The notes below the pieces were generated by a model. It was not told where the DNA came from and ran no database searches. It saw nothing but the letters and a program-made list of their open reading frames with translations. From an uncultured Candidatus Saccharibacteria bacterium (GTDB taxonomy: Bacteria > Patescibacteriota > Saccharimonadia > UBA4664 > CAZOQX01): a DNA stretch of 64,000 bases. Numbering within the stretch: position 1 is the first letter of the stretch; the number at the start of each line of letters is the position of its first letter. Of the stretch, positions 18,967 to 53,270 are shown one piece after another. The translations under genes were made by a program, and so were the position numbers. The stretch is taken from NCBI GenBank assembly GCA_964582465.1, contig CAZOQX010000003.1, positions 1,115-65,114 on the forward strand, in the 5' to 3' direction.

Positions 18967-19028
18967 GGTTCCCCTTTAATTAACTTCCCTATTAAAACAC
19001 TGTCGGCTGAGAAATCGCTTAACACAGA

Positions 19029-19058
19029 GGTAGCCTGGAGCGTTTGCTCCAGGCTACC
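19029..19058 (-). terminator. Perfect 13-bp stem hairpin downstream of the 19076-19471 gene
   Basis: GGTAGCCTGGAGC-gttt-GCTCCAGGCTACC. Only a weak U-tract follows on the minus strand (tctgtgtt). Confidence 0.5.
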
Positions 19059-19075
19059 AGTCGATCGACGCCGCC

Positions 19076-19471
19076 CTACTTGGAAACCGCACAGGCCTGA
19101 GCGAAGGAGGCGTGGTAGCCTTTCTTCGCCGCGAGGTGGGACGCCCAAGGGTACATGTCGCCAGACCGGCGAGTCAGCAGGACGTTGTAGTCCTCCTGGG
19201 CGCCTGCCGGGTCGGTGACGAAGTACACATAGGCCCGAACCGGCCGGTAGCTGCTAGACACGGGCCAGGTCAAGCGTTGCCGCCCATCCCTCCACCCGAT
19301 CTGGATTTTGACCGGACCAGTGAACTTGTAGCGATACGGCCGGTGCTGCCGTGTGGGCTTCGCGATACCATGAATCTGGTTACCACGACAGACCTTGCCG
19401 CTCGCCTGAGCAGGCAAAGCGCCCATCGCCACGACGGACACAATCACTGCCAACCAAATGAAACGCCGCAT
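19076..19471 (-). CDS. Secreted protein of unknown function in a GC-rich islet
   Basis: 131 aa with signal peptide MRRFIWLAVIVSVVAMGALPAQA|SG, two Cys (near the N- and C-terminus), and Arg/Tyr/Trp/Pro-rich GC3-rich codons. GAGAGGAG lies upstream of the ATG. Confidence 0.6.
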   Translation of the reverse strand: MRRFIWLAVIVSVVAMGALPAQASGKVCRGNQIHGIAKPTRQHRPYRYKFTGPVKIQIGWRDGRQRLTWPVSSSYRPVRAYVYFVTDPAGAQEDYNVLLTRRSGDMYPWASHLAAKKGYHASFAQACAVSK

Positions 19472-19564
19472 TCGACGGCTCCTCTCGGTGGGATTGTCAA
19501 TACTTAACCATGATGTGTGCGTGCTGTCAATGACAGTAGCTCCGGCTCTGTTAAAATTACTGCT

Positions 19565-20635
19565 ATGAGTTTAAAAATCGGCATCGTGGGTTTACCAAAC
19601 GTTGGCAAGTCTACCCTCTTCAATGCCCTAACTAAAAACAACGTCCTTGCGGCCAATTACCCATTTGCGACCATTGAACCGAACGTTGGCATTGTGGCGT
19701 TGCCCGACAAACGTCTGGATGAACTCGCAATGCTTTTTCATCCAGAAAAGATCACCCCGGCCACAGTTACCTTCGTAGACATCGCCGGGCTCGTCGCCGG
19801 TGCCCACAAGGGGGAAGGGTTGGGGAATCAATTCTTGGCACACATCCGCGAAACTGATGCGATTTGCCAAGTTGTGCGGGCGTTCAAGGACCCCAACGTC
19901 ACTCATGTCGACGGCCAGGTTGAACCAAAACGCGATATCGAAACCATTCGTACCGAACTTGCCCTAGCCGACCTCGAGCAGCTTGAGCGTCGAGAAGGAA
20001 AATTGACCTCGGAGGCAAAATCGAGCCACGAAGCCGCCGCAGCACTAGAAGCGGTGCAAAAAGCCAAGCAAGCGCTAGATCAAAAACAATTCTTGGAGTC
20101 GAAGCTTGTCGAGAAATTACCTCCGGACCTTAACCTGCTCACGGCTAAACCGTTCATTTACGCCTTTAATCTAGACGAGGCCGACCTAGGCAACCAATCG
20201 TATCAAAAGGAATTGGCGGCTCTTGTTGATCCATCAAAATCGATTTTTTTATCGGCCAAAATCGAGGCCGAGCTAGCAGACTTGCCGCTCACAGAAGCGA
20301 GCAGTCTCTTGCAAGATCTCGGCCAGAGTCAGTCCGGCCTGGATCAGCTCGCACAAGCTGGTTTTGAAATCTTGGGCTTACAAACTTTCCTCACCGCCGG
20401 ACCAAAAGAAGTACGCGCCTGGACGATTCATCAAGGTGATACGGCACCACAAGCCGCCGGCGTCATTCACACTGACTTTCAAAAGGGCTTCATTCGGGCT
20501 GAGGTGGTAAGTTTTTTCGATTTAATCGCCACCGGCTCCGAATCTGCCGCCAAAGCCGCCGGTAAAGTCAGGTCCGAGGGCAAAGATTACGTCATGCAAG
20601 ATGGAGACGTCGTTGAGTTTAGGTTTAACGTTTAA
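19565..20635 (+). CDS. ychF: Ribosome-binding ATPase YchF (Obg-family)
   Basis: MSLKIGIVGLPNVGKSTLFNALT and a C-terminal TGS-like domain (RAWTI..GDTAPQAAGVIHTDFQKGFIRAEV). The listed ORF starts 16 codons earlier (19517). I prefer the ATG at 19565. Confidence 0.93.
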   Translation: MSLKIGIVGLPNVGKSTLFNALTKNNVLAANYPFATIEPNVGIVALPDKRLDELAMLFHPEKITPATVTFVDIAGLVAGAHKGEGLGNQFLAHIRETDAICQVVRAFKDPNVTHVDGQVEPKRDIETIRTELALADLEQLERREGKLTSEAKSSHEAAAALEAVQKAKQALDQKQFLESKLVEKLPPDLNLLTAKPFIYAFNLDEADLGNQSYQKELAALVDPSKSIFLSAKIEAELADLPLTEASSLLQDLGQSQSGLDQLAQAGFEILGLQTFLTAGPKEVRAWTIHQGDTAPQAAGVIHTDFQKGFIRAEVVSFFDLIATGSESAAKAAGKVRSEGKDYVMQDGDVVEFRFNV

Positions 20636-21347
20636 TCAACACAAAGAAGCGCTCTACGTTGCCCTTGGTACCGGCAATCTTAGAATCAGCCTCTGCTTTG
20701 ATCTCATATTGATCACTTAATTGTTCACGAAATCGCTGCAATATCTGGATGCGCAAATTATCGTCTTTGATGACACCCCGCGCCCGATTAGCCTCACGCC
20801 TGGTCGCCTCAAATTGCGGTTTGGCAAGCACAACGATTGGCCCGCCCGGTTTAATCAAGGCGGCCATGCTACTGAGTATTTGTCCCAGCGCTATAAAAGA
20901 AACATCTGCCAGTGCCACATCGGGTATCACGGGCAAGCTGGTGACCTGCCTGATATCAGTTCGCTCCATCACTGTGACGCGGGGGTCATTGCGCAATGCA
21001 TAAGCCAGTTGACCATGTCCGACATCAACCGCAATAACCTCAGTCGCGCCGTGCTTAAGAGCAAAGTCAGTAAAACCACCTGTGGAAGCACCGACATCCA
21101 GAACCACCTTGTCCTCTACATTTAGACCAAGTTCGCCAAAGACAGAGGCCAGCTTATCCCCTCCCCGTGAGACATACTTCGGCATCGGCTTTAGGTCGAT
21201 ATCTGCATTTGAATCAACTGCAAGACCAGGTTTCGCGAGCCTACGCCCGCGTGAAAAAACCTCTCCCGCCATGATCATGGCTTGAGCCGCACGCAAATCC
21301 TGAGCCAGGCCTCGTCTGACAAGAAGTGAGTCCAGGCGCTCCTTCAT
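20625..21347 (-). CDS. tlyA: TlyA-family rRNA 2'-O-methyltransferase (S4 + FtsJ-like domains)
   Basis: RLDSLLVRRGLAQDLRAAQAMIMAGEV (S4 domain), SRGGDKL and LDVGASTGGFTD (SAM-binding motif). Confidence 0.88.
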   Translation of the reverse strand: MKERLDSLLVRRGLAQDLRAAQAMIMAGEVFSRGRRLAKPGLAVDSNADIDLKPMPKYVSRGGDKLASVFGELGLNVEDKVVLDVGASTGGFTDFALKHGATEVIAVDVGHGQLAYALRNDPRVTVMERTDIRQVTSLPVIPDVALADVSFIALGQILSSMAALIKPGGPIVVLAKPQFEATRREANRARGVIKDDNLRIQILQRFREQLSDQYEIKAEADSKIAGTKGNVERFFVLIKR

Positions 21348-21910
21348 TTGGCTCGTTCGAGGTATTGACCAGTGCGAGTATCAACTTTAATACTGTCACC
21401 AACTTGGATAAAGAGGGGCACCTGGGTTTTTAGCCCGGTTTCAAGGGTGCACGCCTTAAGCGCGGCCGTAACTGTATCGCCGCGGGCACCGGGCTCACAC
21501 TCTGTGACTTTCATGTAGACGGTGTTGGGCAAGTCGATCCCTACCACCCGATCCTGAAATTTGAGAAGCGTTACGGTTGCACCGTCAGCCAAATAATTTA
21601 CCTGCTCTCCCAGCTTGGATGCATCAATTGCCTCTTGTTCAAAGCTGGTTTGGTCCATGAAGTAATACTGATTCCCCTCGCGGTAGAGGTATTGTAGGGC
21701 GGCCCGCTCGAGTTCGGCCGATTGGATTTTATCGGCCGCGCGGAAGGTCTTCTCCACCAGTGCCCCGGTCAGTAAGTTTTTAACCTTAACCCGCGCTACG
21801 GCACCGCCGCGGCCCATAGCCGCATGGGAATAATCCACCACGCGGTAAAGCTCACCGTCGAGCTCGATGAGAGTATCTTTGCGTAAATCCGTGTGACCAA
21901 GCATTGCCAT
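21344..21910 (-). CDS. efp: Elongation factor P
   Basis: 188 aa with DLRKDTLIELDGELYRVVDYSHAAMGRGGAVARVKVKNLLTG, an EF-P KOW-like N-domain. Confidence 0.95.
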   Translation of the reverse strand: MAMLGHTDLRKDTLIELDGELYRVVDYSHAAMGRGGAVARVKVKNLLTGALVEKTFRAADKIQSAELERAALQYLYREGNQYYFMDQTSFEQEAIDASKLGEQVNYLADGATVTLLKFQDRVVGIDLPNTVYMKVTECEPGARGDTVTAALKACTLETGLKTQVPLFIQVGDSIKVDTRTGQYLERAK

Positions 21911-21919
21911 AATTTTCTC

Positions 21920-22138: not shown

Positions 22139-22147
22139 TTGGGTCTC

Positions 22148-33172: not shown

Positions 33173-33188
33173 ATGTCTCCTACTTCCA

Positions 33189-33243
33189 GGTAAGTGTCGG
33201 GGCTATTCGATTAAAACTTAATCGGGCAGCTCCACCACTTACC
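33189..33243 (-). promoter_or_regulatory. Nested stem-loop in the rpsO-pnp intergenic region (candidate pnp leader/processing hairpin and rpsO terminator)
   Basis: Outer 8-bp pairing GGTAAGTG (33189-33196) with CACTTACC (33236-33243). It encloses an inner 7-bp hairpin CGATTAA-aac-TTAATCG (33208-33224). The position matches the RNase III-processed pnp leader known in other bacteria. Confidence 0.45.
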
Positions 33244-33284
33244 CCGTTATTTAGTTGTTTAACCTACATTATCGGTTTCTAGCA

Positions 33285-33551
33285 CTATCGCCTCAAATCG
33301 AGCTTCTTAATAATGGCATTATAGCGCTCGGGCTCGGTCTTACTCAAGTAATCGAGCAGGCGGCGGCGTTTGCTCACCATCATGAGGAGTCCGCGGCGGG
33401 AGTGATTATCTTTTTTGTGAGTCTGCAAATGACCCGTCAGCTGACGAATTTTCTCGGTAAAAATACCGACCTGGACCTCTGGAGAACCAGTGTCCTTCTT
33501 GTGAGTCGCAAGCGTCCCAATAATTTTAGATTTTGTCTCAGTGTCTAACAT
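33285..33551 (-). CDS. rpsO: 30S ribosomal protein S15
   Basis: 88 aa with [48 protein letters not shown]. Confidence 0.96.
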
Positions 33552-33593
33552 CAGCTTGGGGTATGTTATCAGATCAAAATCGATTTTACAAGA

Positions 33594-35257: not shown

Positions 35258-35400
35258 AACTTCATTATACCTTCGGATAAGAGTAGTTGGCGTAAAAGTT
35301 GTCTCCTATCATACCATAAGAATAATATTCAGTCAAGAGCAGTAGAAAGAACCTCCGAGGGGCCGCGGCTAGCAGCCCCCCGGAACATGCGATTCGATCG

Positions 35401-35640
35401 CTAGGTGAGTGGGTTGGGTTTCTCGAAGTTAACTCCCTTCGCGGCCCCCACCGAAAAGATGGCCACCCAGAGAAGGCCAAGCGCCAGGGCTGCGATGCCG
35501 ACCCACTTGGGGCCCCAGCCGAAGGTGGCGGCCACAACCCCAGCGACCATCAGAATCGTCAACCACGTGAACCAGCGGCGCCAGCGGCGATCGCGCTCCT
35601 CGTTTCGCCCCATCTCGTCATAGATCTTCCCGTTCAGCAT
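35401..35640 (-). CDS. Small two-TM membrane protein in a GC-rich islet
   Basis: The ATG at 35640 is preceded by AAGGGGGAGG and gives MLNGKIYDEMGRNEERDRRWRRWFTWLTILMVAGVVAATFGWGPKWVGIAALALGLLWVAIF... The listed ORF (to 35679) has 13 extra codons. Confidence 0.5.
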   Translation of the reverse strand: MLNGKIYDEMGRNEERDRRWRRWFTWLTILMVAGVVAATFGWGPKWVGIAALALGLLWVAIFSVGAAKGVNFEKPNPLT

Positions 35641-35687
35641 GGCCTCCCCCTTCGAAAGCGTCGATACGAGTAGCATCATTCTACACC

Positions 35688-37820: not shown

Positions 37821-37903
37821 TGCTTTAGTTTAGCAGCCCGAGACTTCAAAATTTGAGGGCTCAGGCCGGAGCGCTCTCGCGTCCGGGTCGAACACGTGAA
37901 CGC

Positions 37904-38287: not shown

Positions 38288-38351
38288 TTCTTCCTCCCGC
38301 TCCAGGATAAGGTCATTCTCCGGCCTATTCAGGTTCGGCGCAAGCTTAAGG

Positions 38352-42607: not shown

Positions 42608-42614
42608 TACATTA

Positions 42615-42620
42615 ATTATA
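42615..42620 (-). promoter_or_regulatory. Candidate -10 box for polA (near-leaderless)
   Basis: The minus strand reads a perfect TATAAT 7 nt upstream of the polA ATG. No convincing -35 was seen. Confidence 0.3.
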
Positions 42621-42722
42621 GCGAAATTGCTTACTTTCGTGCCGCTTAAGGTTGCTAATCAGGTTGTCAGATTGCAAAATTGCTTTATTGGCATTGCCCG
42701 CTCTTCGACAAAAGGAGCAAAG

Positions 42723-43286
42723 TTGAGCACTCCGACCCTGACACGCCCGGCCCGAACCTACTGGAAGGTCGAGCGCCTGAAGCTGAGCTACAGTGGCATC
42801 GAGGAACGTCGCGAACAGGTACGGCTGCAATCCGAGGCCAACCTCATCGCCTCGCTGTGCGCAAATGGTCTCCACGCCCCGGCACTGGATCTCGACTTTG
42901 AGGTCGATACAGTGAACGTCGGAGACCGAACCCTGCTGACCTTCCACAAGCGAGTGCCTATGCGAGGCTTCAAGTCTCTGCTCAGGGCCTGGCAGGCCTC
43001 GGGCATGTGGCCTGGAGGTGAATGGTGGTGGCAGCCAGGAAGCGTGACACTCATGACTCTGTATCCGACGCGCCTAGTCGCCTCCAGCACGCCCGGCCAC
43101 CACCACCTCTACTACGATCGAGAGATCACCTGGGAGGAATACGCCGAGCTGCTACGTGGACTTCGCGACGCCGGGCTCATCCAGCGCGGGTTCTGTCGCA
43201 TGAGCCTCCGGCGCAAAATGACCATGTTGCGCCTCCCCGGGCACACCAAGAAGACCACACCTCTTCAACCCAGGTTCTCCGACTAG
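42723..43286 (+). CDS. Small protein with archaeo-eukaryotic primase (AEP/Prim-Pol)-like motifs; first gene of the GC-rich island operon
   Basis: The TTG at 42723 is preceded by AAAGGAGCAAAG and is in frame with listed ORF 42570-43286, whose 5' part overlaps polA. Ordered motifs are ALDLDFE (DxD-like), SSTPGHHHLYYD (compare the sGxGxHxYF-type motif) and MLRLPGHTKK (R-x-PG-x-x-K-like). Family assignment is from motif resemblance only. Confidence 0.5.
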   Translation: MSTPTLTRPARTYWKVERLKLSYSGIEERREQVRLQSEANLIASLCANGLHAPALDLDFEVDTVNVGDRTLLTFHKRVPMRGFKSLLRAWQASGMWPGGEWWWQPGSVTLMTLYPTRLVASSTPGHHHLYYDREITWEEYAELLRGLRDAGLIQRGFCRMSLRRKMTMLRLPGHTKKTTPLQPRFSD

Positions 43287-43320
43287 TGTCGGCACGCGGA
43301 CAGTTTGATTGGAGGTTCCA

Positions 43321-43527
43321 GTGGCAAAGTTGAAGCCACGACAGAGGCAAATCCTCGCAGCCCTGGTTTCCCTCGGCGGCGAGGGCAGTACCCGCGAGAT
43401 CGCCGAGAAAGCTGGACTCTCTCCGAACGGTGTAGCCCAGACGCTGGGCTCCCCCGCCTTCGACGACATTGTCGAAGGCTTGGACGGCAAGGCCGGCGAC
43501 TACCGGTGGAAACTGCGCGTTCGCTGA
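43321..43527 (+). CDS. Winged-helix DNA-binding protein (island gene 2)
   Basis: The GTG at 43321 lies 5 nt after GGAGG. (V)AKLKPRQRQILAALVSLGGEGSTREIAEKAGLSPNGVAQTL... is a typical wHTH of the MarR/ArsR type. Confidence 0.6.
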   Translation: MAKLKPRQRQILAALVSLGGEGSTREIAEKAGLSPNGVAQTLGSPAFDDIVEGLDGKAGDYRWKLRVR

Positions 43528-43731
43528 TGCCGAATTTCGGAATCAGCCAATTCGCCGCTGGTTTCACCTACTTCGTCGGTGCGAAACTTCAGCCGATCGC
43601 CGATCTTTTGACCGAACGCCGGTTACATGTGCTCGGCTGTGAGGACCGATTCAACAAGGACCGGCGGCGTCGGAAATTCGGCTGCATGCATTACCCCAAG
43701 GCAGCCATCAGACAATGGAGGAGGCACTGAC

Positions 43732-44154
43732 ATGGGTGAGATGTTGGTCGACGGCAGGGATGCCAAGGTCTACATTCTCTGCCGCCAGCCCGGTGACGTC
43801 CCGTTCGCGTGGTACGAATATTGGGTGGTGTTTCGCGATGGCGAAGTGATCGAGGGCGCTAGCACCAGCGTGCACGATCTCTCCATCGTCGGGGACACGC
43901 TCATGCACAGTCGCCGCATCAACAACGCCCAGTTCCAAACCCCGCCCACGCCGGGGCGAGGCAAGTCGTCGGAACGTTGGCCGGTTCGAGTCATTGAACT
44001 CGGCCACTACTACGGCGAGACCGATGAGGTGGACGATGATCCCCTCTTCTGTCGCTACGACTGCGGCGCCTTCATCACCTGGTATGAGGGTGATGCGCCA
44101 TCAGGCGTCGACCCGTTCGGCGAGTGCCCCAACCATCCGGAGGCCAAGCGATGA
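43732..44154 (+). CDS. Hypothetical protein (island gene 3) with a C-terminal CxxxC...CxxH pattern
   Basis: The ATG at 43732 is preceded by GGAGGAGG. 140 aa with strongly GC3-biased codons. CRYDC...ECPNH lies near the C-terminus. Confidence 0.55.
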   Translation: MGEMLVDGRDAKVYILCRQPGDVPFAWYEYWVVFRDGEVIEGASTSVHDLSIVGDTLMHSRRINNAQFQTPPTPGRGKSSERWPVRVIELGHYYGETDEVDDDPLFCRYDCGAFITWYEGDAPSGVDPFGECPNHPEAKR

Positions 44155-44417
44155 GAGCTAGGCACTCCCCCACACCCAGTGGCACCCCGATCCGTGATTC
44201 AGAGTCAATCGGGCTCAGAAGCACGTTACTGCGGCAGGCCGCTCCCTTGCGGCGGGCCGCTCTGGACCTTGATCCGGATGCGTGGCGACGAGCGGTTAAA
44301 GTGATCGGCTCTCCCACGGATGTCCGTTATGTGCTCGCCATGTTCGACGACGAACTGCCGGCACAGGCGCTGGAGTTCGCCCGACGCATGCTGGCAAAGA
44401 CGGAGGCATCAAAATGA
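44151..44417 (+). CDS. Hypothetical protein (island gene 4)
   Basis: ATGA start/stop overlap with gene 3. 88 aa, Arg/Ala/Pro-rich. Confidence 0.45.
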   Translation: MRARHSPTPSGTPIRDSESIGLRSTLLRQAAPLRRAALDLDPDAWRRAVKVIGSPTDVRYVLAMFDDELPAQALEFARRMLAKTEASK

Positions 44418-44530
44418 GCAAGCAAAAGACAGCTGTGATCGGTGCGGTCGGCCTGCTCGGGCTAGCGATGTTCTACCTCGGGCGGTTCATGGCCAGGCAC
44501 TCGCACGACCTCGGACCCTGCGGCGATTAG
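44414..44530 (+). CDS. 38-aa single-TM peptide (island gene 5)
   Basis: ATGA overlap with gene 4. MSKQKTAVIGAVGLLGLAMFYLGRFMARHSHDLGPCGD. Below the ORF-track length cutoff; found by reading the frame. Confidence 0.4.
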   Translation: MSKQKTAVIGAVGLLGLAMFYLGRFMARHSHDLGPCGD

Positions 44531-44539
44531 GAGGTCAAG

Positions 44540-44638
44540 ATGCGCAAGCTTGTAGGCTACACGCTTCTGGGCATCGCGGCCTACCTCGTTGCCAAGATCA
44601 TCTGGGATTTCCTCGGCCATCTCAGTGAACGGCCATGA
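44540..44638 (+). CDS. 32-aa single-TM peptide (island gene 6)
   Basis: The ATG is preceded by TTAGGAGGTCAAG. MRKLVGYTLLGIAAYLVAKIIWDFLGHLSERP. Confidence 0.4.
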   Translation: MRKLVGYTLLGIAAYLVAKIIWDFLGHLSERP

Positions 44639-44645
44639 GCGCCTC

Positions 44646-45038
44646 ATGAGATCTAGCCCACTCCTCAGCCTGCGTGAGCGTGAAGTCGCCGAACTCGCAA
44701 GCTCCGGTCTGACCAACAAGGAGATTGCCGCTCAGCTCGGCCTCTCGCCCGAAACCATCAAGAATCACTTGTCTCATGCCTTCACGAAACTCGGCGTACA
44801 CAACCGAATTGAGCTGGCTCGCGAGATGGTGCACCGCGAGATGATCCGCGCGAGCAGCACGAGGGTGACAATTCTCGCCACGTCCTTTGACGACGGATCT
44901 TGGTTCGTTGCCATCAAGGAGGACGAAACAGTCAGCGTCGTTCCGTTCAGCAAACGTGAGGAATGGGAGGCTTTTCGCCAAGCACTGGAAGTCCTCCAGC
45001 CCTACCTCTGCGCCCAACTGCGGATAATCGAGCGGTGA
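44646..45038 (+). CDS. LuxR/GerE-type HTH protein with the HTH at the N-terminus and an unknown C-terminal domain (island gene 7)
   Basis: LSLREREVAELASSGLTNKEIAAQLGLSPETIKNHLSHAFTKLGVHNRIELA is a canonical GerE HTH. A 65-aa uncharacterised C-terminal part follows. The start could also be GTG 44625 or the listed 44589. Confidence 0.7.
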   Translation: MRSSPLLSLREREVAELASSGLTNKEIAAQLGLSPETIKNHLSHAFTKLGVHNRIELAREMVHREMIRASSTRVTILATSFDDGSWFVAIKEDETVSVVPFSKREEWEAFRQALEVLQPYLCAQLRIIER

Positions 45039-45058
45039 GCTCTAGCAGCCCGACACCG

Positions 45059-45099
45059 GGGCCCGGGATTCTAACGAATTCCGGGCCCTTGGCCGTTTT
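45059..45099 (+). terminator. Terminator of the island operon
   Basis: 13-bp stem (45059-45071 pairs with 45076-45088, one G-U) with loop taac, then ttggccgTTTT. Confidence 0.55.
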
Positions 45100-45112
45100 A
45101 ATTACAAAGAAA

Positions 45113-45144
45113 GCGCCCCTGGCTCGTGCAAAGCCTCGGGGCGC
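45113..45144. terminator. Hairpin terminator just downstream of rpoD (usable on both strands)
   Basis: GCGCCCC-...-GGGGCGC 7-bp stem. T-runs flank it on both strands (minus: TTTCTTTGT; plus: GTTTTT). Confidence 0.55.
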
Positions 45145-45152
45145 AGTCGTTT

Positions 45153-46301
45153 TTAATGCAGGTAATCGCGTAGTTTTTTACTTTCGCGGTGCTTGCGCAG
45201 TTTGGCGAGCGCCTTGGCCTCGATCTGACGAATTCGCTCGCGGGTCACGCCGAATTCCTGTCCCACCTCTTCCAGTGTGTGACTGCGGCCATCGTCTAGC
45301 CCGAAGCGCATGCGTAAAATTTTCTGTTCGCGTGGGGTAAGTAAGTCAAGCATCTCACCTACCTGCTCTTTCAGCAGCTGATCGGTGGCAGCCTCAAGCG
45401 GCGTGCGCGACTCTTCGTCCGGAATGAAATCGCCCAGCGTAGAGTCGGCTTCCTCGCCCACCGGCGCTTCGAGCGACACAATGTCTTGTTTGATCTTCAT
45501 AATGTGATTAACCTTCTCGACTTCCATGTCCATCTCGGCGGCGAGTTCTTCTACCATCGGTTCGCGTCCCAGTTCTTGCTGCAAGCGCCGCTGGGTGCGA
45601 ATCAACTTATTAATCGTCTCCACCATGTGGACGGGGATACGGATGGTACGGGCTTGGTCGGCAATAGCCCGGGTAATAGCCTGGCGAATCCACCAGGTCG
45701 CATAAGTCGAAAACTTGTAGCCCTTGGTGTAATCGAATTTCTCCACAGCGCGGAGTAGGCCAGTGTTACCCTCCTGAATTAGGTCGAGTAAGTCGAGCCC
45801 ACGCCCAATGTATTTTTTCGCGATCGATACCACCAGACGCATGTTGGCCTCAGCCATCTTGTCCTTAGCCCGCTTGCCATCGGCCGCAGCCAGCGTGTTT
45901 TTAGACGCGTTCACGCCCTTCTGGATCCGCTTCGCGAGCGCTACTTCTTCCTCGGCTTTCAGCAAAGGGATTTTACCAATTTCGCGCAGGTACAGCCTAA
46001 CCGAATCGTCGGCCACTGTGTCATCGATATACGTTTCGGGCTTCTCGGGCTGGGTTTCCTCTTCCTCTTCGCCCTGGCCCCACATCAGCTCATCGCGCTG
46101 ATCAATTACTTCAACGCCGGCATCAAACAGTTGCTGGTAAAACTCATCGAGCTCCTCGACATTATCCTCGGCCTCGCCATAGATCGCGCTAACTTCTTGC
46201 TGTGTGACATAGCCACGCTCCTTGCCCTTGGCAATCAGCTGTTCAACTTCGGAATTGGTCGACGCATCTTCTTCTTGTGGTTTCTGAACCTTTTTCGGCA
46301 T
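45153..46301 (-). CDS. rpoD: Primary RNA polymerase sigma factor (RpoD/SigA)
   Basis: Acidic region 1 is followed by regions 2-4 ([71 protein letters not shown]). Confidence 0.97.
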
Positions 46302-48034
46302 TATAACTCCTTTACCTTGGCCGACAGCGCTTGGTGTTCGGCCATCAACTTTTGGGCCAAATCGCGCCTACCGGCTCGCTCGGCCTCTTTAATTTGATGC
46401 GTAATTTCTTCGTGGCGTCTCCGGGTGGCCAACACGACTAGTTCTTTTGCCAAGTGGAAGGCTTCGAAACTGCGGTCTTGCGGTCCGATCTCGGAATATT
46501 CTTCTTCGCCCTTTAATGAAAGGATTTTAACATAATCTGACAGTTCTGTCAGATCTCTCGCTATCTGGTCAGAAGTAGCGGCCGGCCTGGCTTTGAGAAA
46601 TTTGCAAATAGCTTGGTGCTCACTCCGGCTGAACAATTCTTCGTCCATATCGGCCAGGCTAGCGCGCAGATCGGGAAAGACTAAGTTCAGAGCCAGCAAG
46701 TTCTCCTCCACCACCTCTTCGCGGCTCAACTGCAGTGGGTCAGCCTTCTCCTTCGCCTCCATCTGGCGGACAGGCTTCGGCTCGGCTTGACTCAGTTTTT
46801 CTTTAATTACGGCGGGCTCACCATCGACCCGTTCAGCCAAAAGTTTAATGTAATGCTCTTGCTCCACCGGATCACGCAGATATTTGAGTACGGGTATGAT
46901 TTGATCGGTAAAACTGCGCTTGCCCAGGGCACTCGCCAGATCGCTGCCTGCCGCGTGGCGCTCAAACAACCAGTCCATGACGTATTTAGCCTCGGAAACG
47001 GCGGTTTGCCACAGCTCTGGCTTTTGCTTAATAAGCTCGTCGGGATCCTTGGCGCCAGCCATATCCACGACCGAAAGTGTTAAATTCAGCTGCTGGCTCA
47101 GGTCAATAGCCCGCTCCGTGGCACGCAGTCCGGCGGCGTCTTGATCAAAGGCCAGTTTGACGTTCTTTGTCAGCCGGCCAACCATCTTCAATTGGTCGAG
47201 CGTAAGCGCTGTGCCGCTCGAGGCTACCACCTGTTTCACGCCGGCCTGGTGGCTTGCCACGACGTCCATGTTCCCCTCTACTATTACAAGTTCGTCATGT
47301 TGTTTGACCGCCTCTTTGGCCAAGTGGAAGCCGTAGAGCACCCGACCCTTGTCATAAATCAGTGTCTGCGGGGTATTAAAATACTTTGGCCCGGTGGCCG
47401 TCGGATCAAGAATCCTCGCGGCGATGCCCACCGGCTCCCCGCGCTCATTAGAAATCGGAAAAGTTATGCGCCCACGAAACATATCAAACGTGCGATTGTC
47501 GCGCTGGCCCGTCAGCCCAGCCTGGTTGAGCTCAGCTATTGTAAAGCCCTGCTTGGTCATAAAGGTGGTCAGCCCTGACTGCGTCACCGGTGCATAGCCG
47601 AGCCGAAAATCTAGAATTGACTGCTTGGTCAGTCCGCGCTGCTTCATATAATCGAGGGCTCGCGGGTTCTTGGTCAGGCTAAGCTGATAGTACTTGACGG
47701 CAAGCGTCATGGCAGCCTTAAGCCGGTCTTTCAGCTTGGTGTTGCTCGGCCCCCGGCTCTTTAATTCCACCCCGGCCCGTTTAGCTAGCACCTCCAAGGC
47801 CTGCCGGAAATCCAAGCCTTCCATTTTCATCACGAATTTAAAGATGTCGCCGCCCTCGCCGCAGCCAAAGCAGTGCCAAATACCCTTTTCGGCGCTCACC
47901 ATCATACTAGGCGTCTTCTCGTTGTGGAACGGACAAACGCCTTTCATATTGCGCCCGGCTGGCTTGAGCTGAACGTAGCTAGCCACCACCTCGGCCACAC
48001 CCAGGCGTTCTTTAATTTCCGCCACTTCATCCAT
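46301..48034 (-). CDS. dnaG: DNA primase DnaG
   Basis: The ATG at 48034 gives [58 protein letters not shown] (zinc ribbon), then a TOPRIM domain ([10 protein letters not shown]). The 61 extra codons in the listed ORF (to 48217) run into the GC-rich islet and are rejected. Confidence 0.93.
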
Positions 48035-48113
48035 TAGAAGTAATTGTAGCACTTGAAAGCAAGAGCCCCGCCGGATGACCGGCAGGGCCCGCTTGAACCG
48101 CTGTGCTGTGTCG

Positions 48114-48302
48114 TCACTGTGAGTTATAGATGCTGGCATCCTCGCGGATACTGGCGACACAGTGAGTGCACAGGAGGCAAGACCCCAGCCAGCAGTGCGA
48201 GCAATCCTCGCAGTCATGCGGCGGCCCCACCTTGAAGAAGTCCCGACGCCGCGTCGCGCTGTTCTGGCTCGGAGTCGCTTGCTCGGTACCCGGTGCTGCC
48301 AC
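48114..48302 (-). CDS. Candidate 62-aa Cys-rich ORF in a GC-rich islet (uncertain)
   Basis: GTG start preceded by AGAGAGGA. The C-terminal half contains C-x2-C-x2-C-x4-C-x2-C-x2-C (HDCEDCSHCWLGSCLLCTHC). Competing ORFs exist in other frames, so coding is unproven. Confidence 0.25.
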   Translation of the reverse strand: MAAPGTEQATPSQNSATRRRDFFKVGPPHDCEDCSHCWLGSCLLCTHCVASIREDASIYNSQ

Positions 48303-48571
48303 AGGGAATCCTCTCTGGAAGACGAAAACGGAGACTGGGAGGGACTTGTCCTAGCATCTCAGACTCACCCACATACGCAGCTGCCATGGTCACTGTGCGT
48401 CCTAGTCATACGTGCCGCCACCTGGCCTCGGGCCCGAGTCGCAAGTGGGCGTCGCAGAGAACTTCTTGAACGACCAGCCGTCCGCTAGATCTAGAATATG
48501 ACGACATCCTTTCACGTTACAAGCATAAGGGCAGTTCGAACTTAAGCGTTTTATGTGATTAAATTAAGCTG

Positions 48572-49111
48572 ATGGAACCAACCACCGCCGGCCCTAATTA
48601 CAAGAAAGTCGCCCTCTTCGGCGGCCTAGGCCTAGCCGTCCTCATCGCGATCATCCTCATTTTTGCTAATCACTCCGCCGGGCCGGACAAACAATTCATG
48701 GAGCGAGAGACGGCGAACTTCCAGCAAGCTGTGGCTGTAGCCGCTACCGCCACAACCCAAAACTCCCAAACACCCGACGTCTTAAACGCCGCCGCGAGCA
48801 TGCGCGTAGTAATGCCGAGCGAGATCAACCAAATGAAGGACTGGGACAAAAAGTGGTACGGCGCCAATCTACCCCGTAATGCCGGCTCAATCAAAGTCGT
48901 AAAAGCCAATGCTGAGGCTTTGAATGGCTCGAGCAGTTTTGATAACGACTTTGTTGCGGCGATTTTACCCTACCTGAAAGATAGCCTCAGCATTGCCAAG
49001 CAGTTCCAGCCCACCCTGCAACACTCCGAAACTAAGGATTTAGCTGCGAGCATCATCCGCGATGTCAGCGCCCAAATCTCAACACTCCAGAAGATTAAAA
49101 CTTCACAATAG
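48572..49111 (+). CDS. Membrane-anchored hypothetical protein
   Basis: 179 aa with an N-terminal TM (VALFGGLGLAVLIAIILIF) and a helical ectodomain. No family assigned. Confidence 0.6.
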   Translation: MEPTTAGPNYKKVALFGGLGLAVLIAIILIFANHSAGPDKQFMERETANFQQAVAVAATATTQNSQTPDVLNAAASMRVVMPSEINQMKDWDKKWYGANLPRNAGSIKVVKANAEALNGSSSFDNDFVAAILPYLKDSLSIAKQFQPTLQHSETKDLAASIIRDVSAQISTLQKIKTSQ

Positions 49112-49143
49112 CTCGGTAACTAGTAAAATTAGATCCTGGGCAA

Positions 49144-49233
49144 GGAGAGGTCGCATAGTGGCCTAGTGCGCTCGCTTGGAAAGCGGGTGAAGTCGCAAGG
49201 CTTCCGAGGGTTCGAATCCCTCCCTCTCCGCCA
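49144..49233 (+). tRNA. tRNA-Ser (anticodon GGA), CCA encoded
   Basis: Manual fold: acceptor GGAGAGG/CCTCTCC; anticodon stem CTCGC/GCGGG with loop TTGGAAA (GGA); long variable arm TGAAGTCGCAAGGCTTC; T-arm CGAGG-GTTCGAATC-CCTC(C); discriminator G then CCA. Confidence 0.9.
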
Positions 49234-49254
49234 ATTTCAAAAAGGTTTGACTTT

Positions 49255-49292
49255 AAAAAGTGATGCCCCGCCTCACGACGGGGCATCACTTT
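49255..49292. terminator. Bidirectional terminator between tRNA-Ser and the convergent islet gene
   Basis: AAAAGTGATGCCCCG - cctcacga - CGGGGCATCACTTTT. Perfect 11-bp GC-rich stem with an A-run and a T-run on either side. Confidence 0.75.
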
Positions 49293-49315
49293 TGATGCAT
49301 TGTCGATCAGCGGGA

Positions 49316-49651
49316 CTAAATGAGCTGGGAGAGAGCCGCTCGGTCCTCGGCCATCCACAGGTACCCCTTGCGGGTGGTGGTATTGACGAATCCCCCCACT
49401 GCCCACCTCTTGTGGGTCTCGATTACTTCGCCGTCCAACGTCTCAGACATGACCATGCCCTCGATGTTGTGCGTGTGACCAGAACCGTCCTCGTGCTCGA
49501 GACGGCGGATGCGTGCGTAGACGGTGTGGCCATTCGCGAGATCGAGCTTGGCGAACAGTTTCACCGGACTGAAGGCGAATTTATAGCAATCCGCCAGTCG
49601 ATCGTCAGAAGGACAATCGACTATCTCGAGCTTTTCCAACCAATTCGTCAT
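49316..49651 (-). CDS. Hypothetical protein in the GC-rich islet next to tRNA-Ser
   Basis: 111 aa. The ATG is preceded by AAAGGGGGTGGC. MTNWLEKLEIVDCPSDDRLADCYKFAFSPVKLF... No family recognised. Confidence 0.55.
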   Translation of the reverse strand: MTNWLEKLEIVDCPSDDRLADCYKFAFSPVKLFAKLDLANGHTVYARIRRLEHEDGSGHTHNIEGMVMSETLDGEVIETHKRWAVGGFVNTTTRKGYLWMAEDRAALSQLI

Positions 49652-49816
49652 GCCACCCCCTTTGGGGTACGGTGTCTGTCAGGCCGACACTCTCGCCGTT
49701 ACTCCTTTGGGGAGTCACCAGCCCATACGAGCTGGGATTTAATTAGGATAATACCACTTAAGCTTTAGTTTGTCAATTGATTAGCCAAACCACTGACGCG
49801 GATTTACAATTAGGCT

Positions 49817-50497
49817 ATGCTCGTAATCGCCCTCAAGCAAGTTAACAAAGTTTTTCACGACCAGGCCACCCCGACGCCCGTATTATTCGATATTAATATT
49901 GAAGTGAGTAAGGGCGATTTTGTAGCCATTAGCGGGCCGTCCGGGTCGGGCAAATCAACTCTAATGAACATCTTGGGCCTGCTAGATACTCCCACCAGCG
50001 GCCACTATCTGCTAGACGGCAAGGAAGTTGGTAATCTGCCCGACCGCAAGTTGGCCAAATTCCGGCGCCAGAAAATCGGCTTCGTTTTCCAGAACTTTAA
50101 TCTCATCCCCCGCCTAACGCTATTACAAAATATCGAGCTACCGATGATCTACGCCGGTCTTAGCGCCAAGGAGCGCCACGCCCGCGCCGCTCGGCTCTTA
50201 AAACAAGTCGGGCTAGACGCCTTCGCCGACTATAAACCCACCCAGGTCTCCGGCGGCCAAGCCCAGCGCGTCGCTATCGCCCGAGCCCTCGCCAATAAGC
50301 CAAGTCTGCTGCTAGCCGACGAACCCACCGGCAACTTGGACAGCAAAAATAGCCGGGCCATCATGGAGCAGCTCAAAGTCCTGAATAAAGCCGGCGTCAC
50401 CATTATCGTGGTTACCCATAATCCAGAGGTAGCCGCCTTTACCCACCGCACCATTACCGTTCGCGACGGCCGCATCCAACCCAGGAGAACCGTATGA
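49817..50497 (+). CDS. ABC transporter ATP-binding protein (MacB/LolD-type)
   Basis: GPSGSGKST Walker A, LSGGQAQRVAIARAL signature and LLLADEPTGNLD Walker B. Confidence 0.93.
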   Translation: MLVIALKQVNKVFHDQATPTPVLFDINIEVSKGDFVAISGPSGSGKSTLMNILGLLDTPTSGHYLLDGKEVGNLPDRKLAKFRRQKIGFVFQNFNLIPRLTLLQNIELPMIYAGLSAKERHARAARLLKQVGLDAFADYKPTQVSGGQAQRVAIARALANKPSLLLADEPTGNLDSKNSRAIMEQLKVLNKAGVTIIVVTHNPEVAAFTHRTITVRDGRIQPRRTV

Positions 50498-51717
50498 TCT
50501 GGGAAAACTTTAAAATGGCCCTACGTTCGCTACGTGGCGCCAAGCTGCGCTCATTCCTAACCATGCTCGGCATTATCATTGGTGTAGCATCGGTTACAAC
50601 AATCATCGCGATTGGCCAAGGCGTCAAAGTTGAGGTCGCCAAGCAAATTAATAGTTTTGGTGCCAATAGCGTTTTTATTACGCCGGGACAATTAATTACC
50701 ACCGACAAAAACGGCAAAACTTCCCTAAACCCCTCCGCCGGCGCTGGGACCACTACTCTAACCTCCCAGGACGTCGATTCGGTAAAAAAACTAGCCCACA
50801 TTACAAGTGTAGCCCCGATCAGTCTGTTCTCGGGTTTGATCTCTCAGGGAGCCAGCCAGGACCCGTCGGCCCTCCTACTTGCTACCACCCCGAGTTTTAA
50901 TGAAATTCAAAAACAAACCCTTGCGGCTGGCCGCTTCCTAAAGACTACCGATACGACTCAGGATGTGGTGGTACTCGGCAGCAAGGCTGCTGCCAGCTTA
51001 TTTGGCGATCACGCCGCCGTGGGCCAAACCGTTACAATTCGAACTACGCCGTTCAAAGTCGTTGGCGTTTTTGCTGCCTCACCAAACACCGGTTTTAATT
51101 TCGGCCCCAGTCTGGACGATGCCGTCTACATCCCCGAAAATAGCGCCGTTAAGCTCACCAAAAGCCCACTTCAGATCCTGAGAATCGTGGTCGAAGTTGA
51201 CTCAGCTAGCTCGGTAAACCCTGCCGTTTCCAGCTTAAAGCAGCAACTGCTTAAAAATCATGGCGGCCAAGAGGACTTCAGCGTGCTAAAGCAATCAGAT
51301 ATTATCAGCGCCACCGGCCAAATATTAAATCTGCTAACCACCTTCATAGTCGCCATCGCTTCGATCGCCCTCTTGGTTGGCGGCATCGGCATTATGAATA
51401 TCATGCTGGTGTCGGTCACCGAGCGCACTCGCGAGATCGGCATCCGCAAGGCCATCGGCGCCTCCGCTTCCATCATTATGCTGCAGTTTTTAATCGAAGC
51501 GGTGGTGATCAGCTTCATCGGTGGGCTCCTGGGCCTCGGCCTATCGCTTGTGCAGGGACAACTGGCGGAGAAATTCGCGAAAATTCATCCGGTCTATACG
51601 CTCGGTGCTATTTTGCTCGCCTTCGGTGTTTCAACGCTAATAGGCGTGGTCTTTGGCATCGCGCCAGCTATCAAGGCAGCCCGCAAGCGCCCAATCCAAG
51701 CGTTAAGATACGAGTAA
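50494..51717 (+). CDS. ABC transporter permease (MacB periplasmic domain + FtsX family)
   Basis: 407 aa. N-terminal TM, a large extracytoplasmic domain, and a C-terminal FtsX-like 3-TM bundle (RTREIGIRKAIGAS). ATGA-coupled to the ATPase gene. Confidence 0.9.
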   Translation: MIWENFKMALRSLRGAKLRSFLTMLGIIIGVASVTTIIAIGQGVKVEVAKQINSFGANSVFITPGQLITTDKNGKTSLNPSAGAGTTTLTSQDVDSVKKLAHITSVAPISLFSGLISQGASQDPSALLLATTPSFNEIQKQTLAAGRFLKTTDTTQDVVVLGSKAAASLFGDHAAVGQTVTIRTTPFKVVGVFAASPNTGFNFGPSLDDAVYIPENSAVKLTKSPLQILRIVVEVDSASSVNPAVSSLKQQLLKNHGGQEDFSVLKQSDIISATGQILNLLTTFIVAIASIALLVGGIGIMNIMLVSVTERTREIGIRKAIGASASIIMLQFLIEAVVISFIGGLLGLGLSLVQGQLAEKFAKIHPVYTLGAILLAFGVSTLIGVVFGIAPAIKAARKRPIQALRYE

Positions 51718-51720
51718 CAA

Positions 51721-52734
51721 CTAGCCTAATTCTTTTTTAAGCTCTTCAACCAAATCGACAGGCAGTGGATCAACCCGGTTTAGAAATGCGAGATACACGC
51801 TCACGAAATCGCCGAGCAGCGTCGTCCATAAAATCTGCTGGATCTTGGTTTCGCCCTTGGCCTCCACTACCAGGGGCTTAGGCATATGCCCAGCGAGCAG
51901 ACGGCTCACGATGTCGTAGCTTTTAACAACGCGTGGATGATCAAAGCTGGATTTAATCTGCACCACTTTCAGCTTTGGTTGCTCCGGGTGGAGCCATCCT
52001 TGGAATTCGTTGTGTTTAAATTCAGGCCAGAGGTAATAAAAAGCTAGATTCTTGGCGTTTTCATTCAGATCAATCTTCCACTTTAAAACTGCCGGCGCCA
52101 TTTGGGTGCTACCGTAAACCACCACGACGTGCCCCTGCAGATCCTGGGCCAGTTGCTTTGCGGGGTTATTCGCCACCGACTTGTCTTTACTCCAGCTAGC
52201 GATTTCTTTAATTAACCACTCCCCCGCTTCTTCCAGCTCAGCCGTTGCACCACTAACTAGACCGACCGACTCAAGTAGCGTCGCCAGTGCTTTGAGCGCA
52301 AAGAAAACGGCCAGGCGGGGCTGCAGGGCCGCTGGGACTTTGAGCATAGGGATTTGCTCGCGTTCGGCCACCTTTTCCAGATCTCCGCCAGAGGCTAAGA
52401 TGACAACTTTAGCATTCCTCCCCTTGGCGTCCTCGAGCGCAGATAGTGCCTCCTCGGTATCACCTGAGTAACTAGAAGCTATCACTAAAGTATTTTCACC
52501 CACCCAAGCCGGCAAATTATAATCACGCACGATTTCGAAGGGCACTTGCAGATCGTCACGCAACCAACACTTAATAAATTCACCTGGCAATGCCGACCCA
52601 CCCATTCCGACAAGAACCACGTTGCTGGGCAGAGGCAGATTAATAGCAAGCGGAAATTGCTGTTTCAGTTGGGTTAGTTGGCCGGCGATTACTGCCAGTG
52701 CATTACCTTGATCAACCTCACGAACATCAGACAT
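51721..52734 (-). CDS. Bifunctional phosphoglucose/phosphomannose isomerase (SIS domain family)
   Basis: VVLVGMGGSALPGEFIK and ASSYSGDTEE SIS motifs with the bifunctional PGI/PMI C-terminal region. 337 aa. Confidence 0.8.
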   Translation of the reverse strand: MSDVREVDQGNALAVIAGQLTQLKQQFPLAINLPLPSNVVLVGMGGSALPGEFIKCWLRDDLQVPFEIVRDYNLPAWVGENTLVIASSYSGDTEEALSALEDAKGRNAKVVILASGGDLEKVAEREQIPMLKVPAALQPRLAVFFALKALATLLESVGLVSGATAELEEAGEWLIKEIASWSKDKSVANNPAKQLAQDLQGHVVVVYGSTQMAPAVLKWKIDLNENAKNLAFYYLWPEFKHNEFQGWLHPEQPKLKVVQIKSSFDHPRVVKSYDIVSRLLAGHMPKPLVVEAKGETKIQQILWTTLLGDFVSVYLAFLNRVDPLPVDLVEELKKELG

Positions 52735-52815
52735 GTCTCTATTATGCCATAAACGTATGATGCAAGAAGCCCGCCATCCAGGCGAAACTCCTCGCGTCAG
52801 ATGACGGGCATGTGG

Positions 52816-53205
52816 CTAGTCGGGGTAGATGGGCTCATCCCCGGTCATAATGAAGTGAAGGAAGACGTCTGCTACCCCTGGCAAGGCTTCATCCTCTGCC
52901 GGCTTATCCTTTACCGGGTCGCGGCCCTTCCAGCTCAAGAACTCGACAGCTGCCCTCATCGACAGCGAGCGGCGCACCTCTTGAGCTGAGAGTCGTGTGT
53001 GCTCTCTTGGGACCTCTTCAACCGTGGTATCGGCGCCGCTTGCGTCGATGTAAGCAGAGATGACCAGGGTCGTGGCCAAGACATTGCGAATCCTCACTAT
53101 CCCAACGGGCGAATGTACCGCACCCGCCGCCCGGGGATGCCATAAAGACAGGGCCTGGAACAAAGCTGTGGCCCGAATGTCTTCTTCTCTTGAGAGCAGA
53201 CTCAC
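52816..53205 (-). CDS. Hypothetical protein in a GC-rich islet downstream of the groEL terminator
   Basis: GTG start preceded by GAGGAGGGAAA. 129 aa. No family recognised. Confidence 0.45.
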   Translation of the reverse strand: MSLLSREEDIRATALFQALSLWHPRAAGAVHSPVGIVRIRNVLATTLVISAYIDASGADTTVEEVPREHTRLSAQEVRRSLSMRAAVEFLSWKGRDPVKDKPAEDEALPGVADVFLHFIMTGDEPIYPD

Positions 53206-53270
53206 TTTCCCTCCTCGGGGCTGGGTCCAACCAATTTTTCATCACCTCGAAGTAATTTACAAGCATAACA

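Follow-up and report, generated by a model that had tools for sequence, protein, structure and literature searches.

ORFans of Escherichia coli were reportedly described by Daubin and Ochman in 2004 as accessory islets gained horizontally between conserved operons, and a raised content of adenine plus thymine (A+T) is the usual finding for classic ORFans and mobile DNA. Saccharibacteria have tiny genomes and live as obligate epibionts of Actinobacteria. The stretch studied here (the window) comprises 64,000 nucleotides (nt) of contig CAZOQX010000003.1 (assembly GCA_964582465.1, positions 1,115 to 65,114, forward strand) from an uncultured Candidatus Saccharibacteria bacterium, and contains seven intergenic segments rich in guanine plus cytosine (G+C) that carry small genes, referred to as islets. 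These islets resemble the E. coli ORFan islets in being short, lineage-specific and compositionally atypical, in lying within gaps of a syntenic backbone and in having, in many cases, no homologue, but they differ in being G+C-richer than the genome, in being led by Shine-Dalgarno (SD) sequences next to a leaderless-like backbone, and in containing no mobility genes. Their shift to a higher G+C content than that of the genome is thus the reverse of the direction usual for foreign DNA. On balance, the islets are probably accessory genes acquired by repeated horizontal gain from a higher-G+C mobile gene pool, phages among others, followed by partial compositional drift. Islets of ORFans between conserved operons are already known as a kind and current views are not overturned; what the locus adds is the direction of the composition shift, an actinophage-type cassette in an epibiont chromosome, a leaderless-looking backbone and a candidate leader RNA.

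A route by which phage genes could pass between epibiont and host is known from phages that CRISPR (clustered regularly interspaced short palindromic repeats) spacers link to Saccharibacteria as well as to Actinobacteria (Liu et al. 2023, PMC10746230), where seven of the nine Saccharibacteria phages co-targeted from outside the three Candidate Phyla Radiation (CPR) lineages studied are co-targeted by Actinobacteria spacers. Those data consist of spacer matches and concern oral phages, whereas the evidence in the window is a chromosomal cassette with distant protein similarity. The closest kin of this cassette are the early/DNA-metabolism cassettes of actinobacteriophages (phrog_10893/phrog_18245; Microbacterium phage Barnstormer gp37 and Arthrobacter phage Peas gp48). 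The seven islets are as follows, with lengths in amino acids (aa) and open reading frames abbreviated as ORFs:

19076..19471, minus strand: O1, a 131-aa ORFan with a signal-peptide-like N-terminal segment, in islet 1 (intergenic region 18967-19564)
35401..35640, minus strand: O2, a small membrane protein of 79 aa (92 aa from the start at 35679) that has two hydrophobic helices
37904..38287, minus strand: O3, a 127-aa ORFan flanked by mutM and a PGAM-type histidine-phosphatase gene
42608..45152, plus strand: the polA/rpoD island, eight co-oriented, packed small genes on the strand opposite to polA and rpoD
48114..48302, minus strand: O5 candidate, a 62-aa Cys-rich ORF of uncertain coding status in the 537-nt gap upstream of dnaG
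49316..49651, minus strand: O6, 111 aa, of a rare family with the motif LEHEDGSG found in Saccharibacteria-like contigs
52816..53205, minus strand: O7, a 129-aa ORFan flanked by the groEL terminator and pgi

Each of the seven segments lies between genes and leaves the reading frames of the adjoining genes intact, and the housekeeping neighbours named in the original prediction are borne out. Seven flanking genes are named by Pfam (TruB, DHH, HolA, His_Phos, Fpg, PGI and ABC), tRNA-Ser is confirmed by ARAGORN (49144-49233) and Rfam (49144-49230), and polA, rpoD, dnaG and groEL are named by alignment to relatives or from their own sequence. The long dnaG ORF (46301-48217) runs 61 codons past the conserved start (extension 48035-48217); as the dnaG start lies at 48034, a position set by alignment to eleven relatives and by the public gene call, segment 5 is entirely intergenic. 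The window RpoD, PolA, DnaG, MutM, HolA, RpsT and DHH (NrnA-like) proteins have their top matches in Candidatus Saccharibacteria metagenome-assembled genomes.

The segments are G+C-richer than the window, as had been noted by eye, with values in order of 0.590, 0.568, 0.601, 0.605, 0.603, 0.569 and 0.570 against a window mean of 0.523 (52.3%). In raw G+C the sole strong outlier is 42700-45110 (z 3.8, 99.9th percentile), while the other six have z values of 1.3-2.4, and equally GC-rich 300-nt stretches exist within housekeeping genes. The difference is clear at the codon level: G+C at the first, second and third codon positions (GC1/GC2/GC3) is 0.615/0.470/0.735 in the 14 pooled islet ORFs and 0.582/0.405/0.579 in the 45 backbone genes. 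GC3 of the islet ORFs ranges from 0.65 to 0.83, the per-gene maximum among the 45 backbone genes is 0.661, and only 27 of 1167 in-frame backbone windows of 110 codons (2.3%) have a GC3 of at least 0.70. The expected richness in Arg and Trp is found, both being about doubled (9.1% vs 4.9% and 2.5% vs 1.0%, islet vs backbone), while Pro is barely raised (5.4% vs 4.4%); Lys and Asn are depleted in the islet ORFs relative to the backbone. Since an Arg/Trp-rich, Lys/Asn-poor make-up and raised GC1 and GC2 are typical of higher-GC genomes, the composition favours a foreign pool. The highly expressed native genes groEL, rpoD and rpsT do not have a high GC3, so that expression level does not account for that of the islets.

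The pile-ups of overlapping ORFs in the segments are present but are a by-product of GC-rich DNA, which is stop-poor, and one frame per segment has the coding pattern GC3>GC1>GC2. The public gene calls include precisely O1, O2, O3 (127 aa), O4a, O4c, O4e, O6 and O7. GC-rich structured RNA (ribosomal RNA fragments, RNase P and the like) was rejected as the cause of the composition, as Rfam at the gathering score finds no RNA gene in the segments, its only match in the window being the tRNA-Ser at 49144-49230. A repeated element, such as a miniature inverted-repeat transposable element (MITE), a repetitive extragenic palindrome (REP) or an insertion sequence (IS), was also discarded, with no significant repeat common to the segments.

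The polA/rpoD island, about 2.5 kb in length with a G+C content of ~0.60 (z 3.8), has a demonstrable connection to phages. Its public gene calls have lengths of 187, 68, 67, 140, 88, 38, 32 and 130 aa, several stops and starts touching or overlapping:

42723..43286, plus strand: O4a, 187 aa, of an actinophage protein family
43321..43527, plus strand: O4b, 68 aa, helix-turn-helix (HTH)-like, SD GGAGGT
43527..43730, plus strand: 67-aa ORF called in the second-assembler contig L121, GC3 0.676, no SD and no family, the weakest gene call of the island
43732..44154, plus strand: O4c, a 140-aa ORFan, GC3 0.773, SD AGGAGG
44151..44417, plus strand: O4d, an 88-aa ORFan whose start overlaps the O4c stop, no family
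44414-44530, plus strand: 38-aa mini-ORF with one hydrophobic helix, SD GGAGG
44540-44638, plus strand: 32-aa mini-ORF with one hydrophobic helix, SD AGGAGGT
44646..45038, plus strand: O4e, a 130-aa LuxR/GerE-type HTH regulator, C-terminal half without assigned family

The earlier statement that none of the encoded proteins can be assigned to a family is correct for most of them but wrong for O4a, which matches phrog_10893 (expectation value (E) 5e-13), for O4e, which matches GerE (E 8e-20), and for O6, which has four distant relatives. In tblastn searches O4a has no match among plasmids, and all 133 of the 133 phage records matched are phages of Gordonia, Mycobacterium, Microbacterium, Arthrobacter, Rhodococcus and Curtobacterium, a count that overstates the specificity of the protein, the phage collection being actinophage-rich. 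The phage homologues are hypothetical proteins of 140-200 aa encoded amid exonuclease, primase/helicase, DnaE, thymidylate synthase and MazG genes. A profile search recovers 220 relatives, many of them on phage-sized contigs, the named ones coming from actinophages, Rhodococcus hoagii and Nocardia. The nearest relative, P0099, is ~39% identical and lies on a 103-kb phage-like contig of 69% G+C with Ku and DUF3631 genes. Identity to the relatives is only 31-50%, and with the nearest one at this distance the transfer was neither recent nor from a sampled donor.

O4a shares with the actinophage family the core HxxxxDxD ... SSTPGHxHLYxD ... GY..AS..RG.T.LR.PW.KK and keeps the family residues H51, D56xD58, S121-T123-G125-H126-x-H128 and D132, of which D56xD58, S121-T123-G125-H126-x-H128 and D132 are invariant or nearly so across 120 family members. 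In our own reading, these residues would correspond to the catalytic motifs (acidic DxD, Ser/His and a further Asp) of the archaeo-eukaryotic primase (AEP) superfamily, in which primase-polymerases such as RepB' of plasmid RSF1010 and the PrimPol of cyanophage S-2L were the compared systems. The AlphaFold model built from the 120-sequence alignment (predicted local distance difference test (pLDDT) score 85.5) is tentatively AEP (primase-polymerase)-like, while no sequence match is found in Pfam (including the Prim-Pol/primase families), NCBIfam or the Protein Data Bank (PDB). Between DxD and SSTPGH, where the family usually has ~12 residues, O4a contains an insertion of ~65 residues (42870-43090; residues ~59-120), which is shared by P0099 only and forms extra strands and a helix in the AlphaFold2 model.

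O4e is a DNA-binding regulator containing Pfam domain GerE (PF00196; E 7.8e-20, 70.7 bits vs a cut-off of 23.5; residues 26-78 of the 149-aa ORF). A donor for this LuxR gene was sought among phage and plasmid genes and none is indicated, as the matches are limited to the HTH part and come from mixed phyla. O4b may be a small HTH protein, weak evidence for which comes from sub-threshold Pfam HTH matches (Sigma70_r4_2, E 1e-3; HTH_24; LexA_DNA_bind). At its end, upstream of the rpoD stop, the island has inverted repeats that the terminator scan does not list and that are read here as putative terminators.

The island thus resembles part of an early-gene cassette of phage type; like the actinophage regions, it consists of co-oriented small genes whose stops and starts touch. 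It differs from the actinophage loci, which have 65-70% G+C, in its ~60% G+C and its location in a Saccharibacteria chromosome, and its other genes are not found in those phages. No structural, lysis, packaging or integration gene is present among the island genes scanned with PHROG, Pfam and NCBIfam (all except the 38- and 32-aa mini-ORFs), and the island is a fragment or cassette, not a prophage. Gene gain by Saccharibacteria, and any use of hosts or host phages as a source, are poorly documented, and a cassette headed by a gene of a family that has been named in actinophages and Actinobacteria only provides a concrete, testable case of gene flow.

Translation signals also set the islets apart. 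The unusually strong SD sequences predicted for them are present, all six quoted strings lying 5-9 nt upstream of a start codon, and an SD core of at least 5 nt precedes 10 of the 14 islet ORFs vs 13 of the 45 backbone genes. In at least nine genes of the backbone the SD is missing and a TAnnAT (-10-like) box ends 6-8 nt ahead of the start codon, with start positions as follows:

42607, polA
48034, dnaG
19565, ychF (from Met-17)
35257, nrnA-like gene
49817, ABC gene
14993, gene of the 1490-aa possible surface protein
17490, 23099 and 28229, further leaderless-looking starts

These boxes suggest, as far as sequence can tell, that leaderless mRNAs are widespread in the genome, vs SD-led islet genes. 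The contrast fits a different origin of the islet genes, although it could also reflect gene position or expression needs, and it may serve as a simple flag for accessory genes in such genomes. With most having their own strong SD and several their own terminator (a strong hairpin-plus-T terminator follows each of O1, O2, the O5 candidate and O6), the islet genes are real or probably real.

The presence of the islets was compared at the same junctions in related Saccharibacteria contigs, the comparison covering O2, O3 and the O4 island; synteny is not conserved past dnaG (O5-O7), and O1 lies outside the loci compared. The order dnaG-rpoD-polA-mutM-holA-rpsT-nrnA is kept in L001, L005, L010 and L053, and partly in L002, and the islet genes are in none of them. 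The divergent rpsT/nrnA gap is empty and 178-182 nt long in L005, L010 and L053, vs 486 nt with O2 in the window; mutM directly adjoins holA in L010 and L002, where the window has O3 and the histidine-phosphatase gene; and the rpoD-polA gap is 451-679 nt without island genes in L001, L005 and L010, vs 2545 nt in the window. O2, O3 and the O4 island are therefore absent at the same junctions in distant Saccharibacteria, and tblastn with the islet proteins gives no match in 16 related loci (13 Saccharibacteria-type and three other CPR). In other relatives the rpoD-polA gap holds genes of ordinary composition (a kinase, a P-type ATPase and a second sigma factor).

The same gap of L008, a 1-Mb Saccharibacteria contig, contains two WhiB-family genes (12433-13146 and 13221-13694; Pfam PF02467, E 2e-14 and 2e-8). 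Proteins of the WhiB type are considered characteristic of Actinobacteria and of the phages that infect them. Small GC3-rich ORFs (0.76-0.83) occur in L001 (15064-15303, 16479-16871 and 19340-19498) and L053 (18319-19008), where they sit in the polA-mutM, mutM-holA and rpsT-nrnA gaps; some are membrane- or lipoprotein-like, two of the four have SD sites, and all are sequence-unrelated to the islets of the window. A mosaic at single-gene grain was thus described as unusual with too much emphasis, as L001 and L053 carry such ORFs in equivalent slots, and the pattern may be clade-wide. In the window, L001 and L053 the non-conserved DNA is G+C-richer than the conserved DNA, and in most other loci the relation is reversed.

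Among the single-gene islets, O1 has a GC3 of 0.765, an SD (GAGAGGAG) 7 nt upstream of its ATG and a 13-bp terminator hairpin (19029-19058) directly past its stop; it is a called gene and a singleton in a 15-billion-protein collection. O2 has a GC3 of 0.825, the SD AAGGGGGAGG ahead of the ATG at 35640 and a 14-bp terminator (35353-35385), and its only Pfam and NCBIfam matches are sub-threshold ones to small membrane families (DUF3040, Rv2743c/PspM and SepX), which are probably driven by its two hydrophobic helices. O3 has a GC3 of 0.727 and the SD GGGAGGAAG, its 127-aa form being the library protein P0128. The O5 candidate, with a GC3 of 0.746, is the only ORF of segment 5 that has both an SD-like site (GAGAGGA) and a terminator (12 bp, 48063-48090, past its stop), and it was left uncalled by the public gene caller on the second-assembler contig L124. 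O7 has the SD GAGGAGGG ahead of a GTG start and the weakest compositional signal (GC3 0.662), and is also a singleton in the 15-billion-protein collection.

Next to O3, the histidine-phosphatase (PGAM-type) gene (37272-37820) has a low G+C content (0.466; GC3 0.475) and lacks a counterpart in the mutM-holA interval of L010 and L002, and also looks variable, with a composition bias opposite to that of the islets. In the rpsT/holA gap, outside the seven segments, a 68-aa ORF (36137-36343, plus strand) with a GC3 of 0.652 and no Pfam match, called on the second-assembler contig L133, may be another small lineage-specific gene.

According to the explanation favoured here, genes of a higher-GC mobile pool would repeatedly enter inter-operon gaps of a conserved Saccharibacteria backbone, possibly by illegitimate or homology-facilitated recombination following DNA uptake or phage contact, and would then drift partway toward the composition of the recipient. 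The polA/rpoD island would contribute a primase-like (AEP-type) protein, two regulators that bind DNA, three ORFans and a pair of mini membrane peptides. From the single islets would come O1, putatively secreted, O2, a membrane protein of two helices, O5, possibly a Cys-rich peptide, and O3 and O7, presumably cytoplasmic ORFans. The single-islet genes may be of the fast-turnover surface or regulatory kind traded among phages and epibionts. The diversity and sparse sampling of phage genes would account for the ORFans. Saccharibacteria are naturally competent and live on Actinobacteria (PMC10633639), and, together with the co-targeting by spacers (PMC10746230), this lends plausibility to a route linked to actinophages; competence is a plausible but putative means of uptake. 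Foreign acquisition from a high-GC donor is accordingly upheld in part: composition, absence at three junctions and the actinophage link of O4a speak for it, but a donor is lacking for most other genes.

Several observations weigh against this explanation. When O1, O3, O6, O7 and O4c were joined as one query and run with full HMMER against 1.84 billion representative proteins, O1, O3, O4c and O7 found only themselves at E<=1e-3, while O2, O4b, O4d and O5 were searched only with weaker tools. O1, O3, O4c, O4d, O5 and O7 give nothing in Pfam, PHROGs, NCBIfam, PADLOC or tblastn against phages and plasmids. Word-indexed protein searches with the concatenated orphans gave no hits and are unreliable, having missed the 220-member O4a family. 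The PADLOC defence-system and NCBIfam models find nothing meaningful among the islet proteins, and the orphans have no tblastn match in plasmids. No integrase or transposase is present among the islet genes (Pfam, PHROG and NCBIfam), only chance 7-8-mers are found in place of att sites, target duplications or flanking direct repeats at the islet borders, and no significant repeat is shared among the segments. The low identity of O4a to its relatives and the actinophage bias of the phage collection belong here as well. Furthermore, even the best relatives of the window are far removed (identity of the matched part of RpoD at most 73% and of PolA at most 57%, with 68% and 57% in L001; DnaG at most 44% across a substantial match in a metagenome scan), so that gain here is not separable from loss elsewhere. 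The last points on this side come from O6, which looks native and is GC3-rich all the same, so that a high GC3 alone is no proof of foreign origin.

The main rival is that the islets are native, vertically inherited, fast-evolving lineage-specific genes whose high GC3 and SD sequences arose by gene-specific selection or mutation bias, and O6 is one such case. In the full HMMER search O6 has four weak relatives (E 3e-6 to 4e-4), the alignment having 12 invariant columns and the shared motifs DGPS..RL.DA.K.AY ... LEHEDGSG. These relatives sit amid housekeeping genes of Saccharibacteria-like genomes; the actinobacterial source proposed for the islets therefore fails in the case of O6. One homologue contig has the order rlmH-[O6 homologue]-leuS-femAB-femAB-tsaD, comparable with the femAB-femAB-leuS block at 58-63.6 kb of the window, and the Mur ligase of the homologue contig L125 is 55-63% identical to that of the window. 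The O6-family gene is GC3-richer than its neighbours in four of four genomes, and its site varies by genome: after rlmH, beside bipA and tRNA-Glu (upstream of tRNA-Glu in L127), and beside tRNA-Ser in the window. The two tRNA positions, next to tRNA-Ser for O6 and by tRNA-Glu for the L127 homologue, are an only suggestive hint of mobility. The AlphaFold2 model of O6 has a pLDDT of 85, and its fold matches are uninformative. O6 is an old, rare and probably regulated family of Saccharibacteria-like contigs, not an actinobacterial import, and its inheritance looks vertical or intra-phylum. Between tRNA-Ser and the O6 stop, a perfect GC-rich hairpin (49256-49290) with A-runs and T-runs on its flanks looks like a bidirectional terminator. 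Upstream of the O6 start lies the following region:

49652..49776, minus strand: O6 promoter (49748-49776; TTGACA-17-TATTAT with TG) and ~95-nt leader

The promoter is the best sigma-70-type match of the region. Regulatory 5' leaders that sequester the SD are described as translational riboswitches and RNA thermometers, and the O6 leader is like them in having a promoter, several hairpins and a last helix that would occlude the SD, and in being more strongly conserved than the coding sequence. It is conserved in L125 (968-1066) and L127 (7906-8003), though the proteins are ~32% identical to O6. The consensus contains four predicted hairpins, the last of which pairs CCCC with the SD GGGG, with compensatory changes at 5 of 25 predicted pairs among only 3 distinct sequences, and a single-sequence fold z-score of -1.4. 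Unlike the described leaders, it belongs to no Rfam family (4227 families; no match even at E<=10), and three distinct copies are known; a covariance model run over 743 kb of related loci finds no copy beyond the three used to build it. To our knowledge, almost no regulatory RNAs are known in the phylum. The O6-family leader is a candidate new cis-regulatory RNA of Saccharibacteria.

Native origin is further supported by L001 and L053, whose equivalent slots hold small ORFs of high GC3, some of them resembling membrane proteins or lipoproteins, by the leader common to three genomes, by the four HMMER-tested islet genes without homologue, as would be expected under rapid divergence, and by the mobility signatures not being found. 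However, O4a clearly belongs to a phage-borne family, GC1, GC2 and the amino-acid make-up are shifted too, highly expressed native genes do not have a high GC3, and the islet ORFs of the relatives are sequence-unrelated to those of the window. As a general account of the islets, native origin is thus unlikely.

A bolder variant of horizontal gain is that the gaps of this mid-GC clade are landing slots for high-GC DNA of the phages of the host, or of lysed host cells, arriving by competence, the ORFans, secreted and membrane proteins among them, being continually seeded from the host virome. Stop-poor high-GC DNA would readily yield new SD-led small genes, and the primase-like cassette and the WhiB genes of L008, both at polA/rpoD, would be the still-recognizable cases. 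This is regarded as speculative and distinctly improbable.

Slightly less credible again is that the islets are pieces of the chromosome of an actinobacterial host, taken up by type IV pilus/competence machinery and integrated directly. Type IV pilus genes are encoded in the window as predicted (PilM and a PilC/T2SS-F protein), the composition is shifted toward high G+C, O2 has its weak matches to DUF3040, Rv2743c/PspM and SepX, WhiB genes occupy the rpoD-polA gap of L008, and competent Saccharibacteria live on Actinobacteria (PMC10633639). But Actinobacteria are densely sampled, and still 1.84 billion representative proteins contain nothing related to O1, O3, O4c or O7 at E<=1e-3; the islet DNA has no blastn match in phages; the alternative frames of the segments, scanned for decayed foreign genes, have no Pfam match; and the O4a family is mostly on phage-sized contigs. 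High-GC Actinobacteria are expected to have a GC3 of roughly 0.9, and that of the islets (~0.73) is well below this value. A gene-content survey reports few 'originations' and notes that evidence for host-epibiont transfer is lacking in the profiled pairs (PMC8406219). The direct import from a host chromosome suggested by the original prediction is therefore not sustained, and the mobile gene pool remains the preferred source.

It is very unlikely that the islet genes are young de novo ORFs which arose from stop-poor GC-rich DNA, foreign or non-coding, and gained SD sequences. Several long ORFs overlap in every segment, O1, O3, O4c and O7 rank as strict ORFans, it is doubtful whether O5 is coding, and unrelated GC-rich ORFs occupy the same slots in relatives. 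Each segment, however, has one GC3>GC1>GC2 frame with a well-spaced SD and often a terminator, O4a, O4e and O6 are clearly old families, and no source DNA was found.

The assembly is supported by six Logan contigs (run SRR9179560; reads probably the same as those of the NCBI contig, assembler different), which are exact substrings of the window and each span one of the islets O1-O6 with both flanks:

18700-21918: L132, spans O1
33144-37318: L133, spans O2
37343-38835: L135, spans O3
40356-45219: L121, spans the O4 island, both junctions exact
47852-49171: L124, spans O5
49208-51144: L134, spans O6 with the junction on the ABC side, and extends 26 nt into tRNA-Ser

As a different assembler gives the same sequence, chimeric joins are unlikely for these six islets, and an assembly or binning artefact joining high-GC fragments to a Saccharibacteria contig, which a metagenome-type assembly and the sharp composition change at the island borders might suggest, can be dismissed as highly improbable, since 6 of 7 islets are reproduced base for base, syntenic Saccharibacteria genes lie on both sides of each insert, and the inserts end in native-looking promoters and terminators.

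After the type IV pilus genes, the window encodes a 1490-aa protein (10521-14993, minus strand) with only a weak Ig-like domain match, which may be a large surface/adhesion protein of the epibiont.

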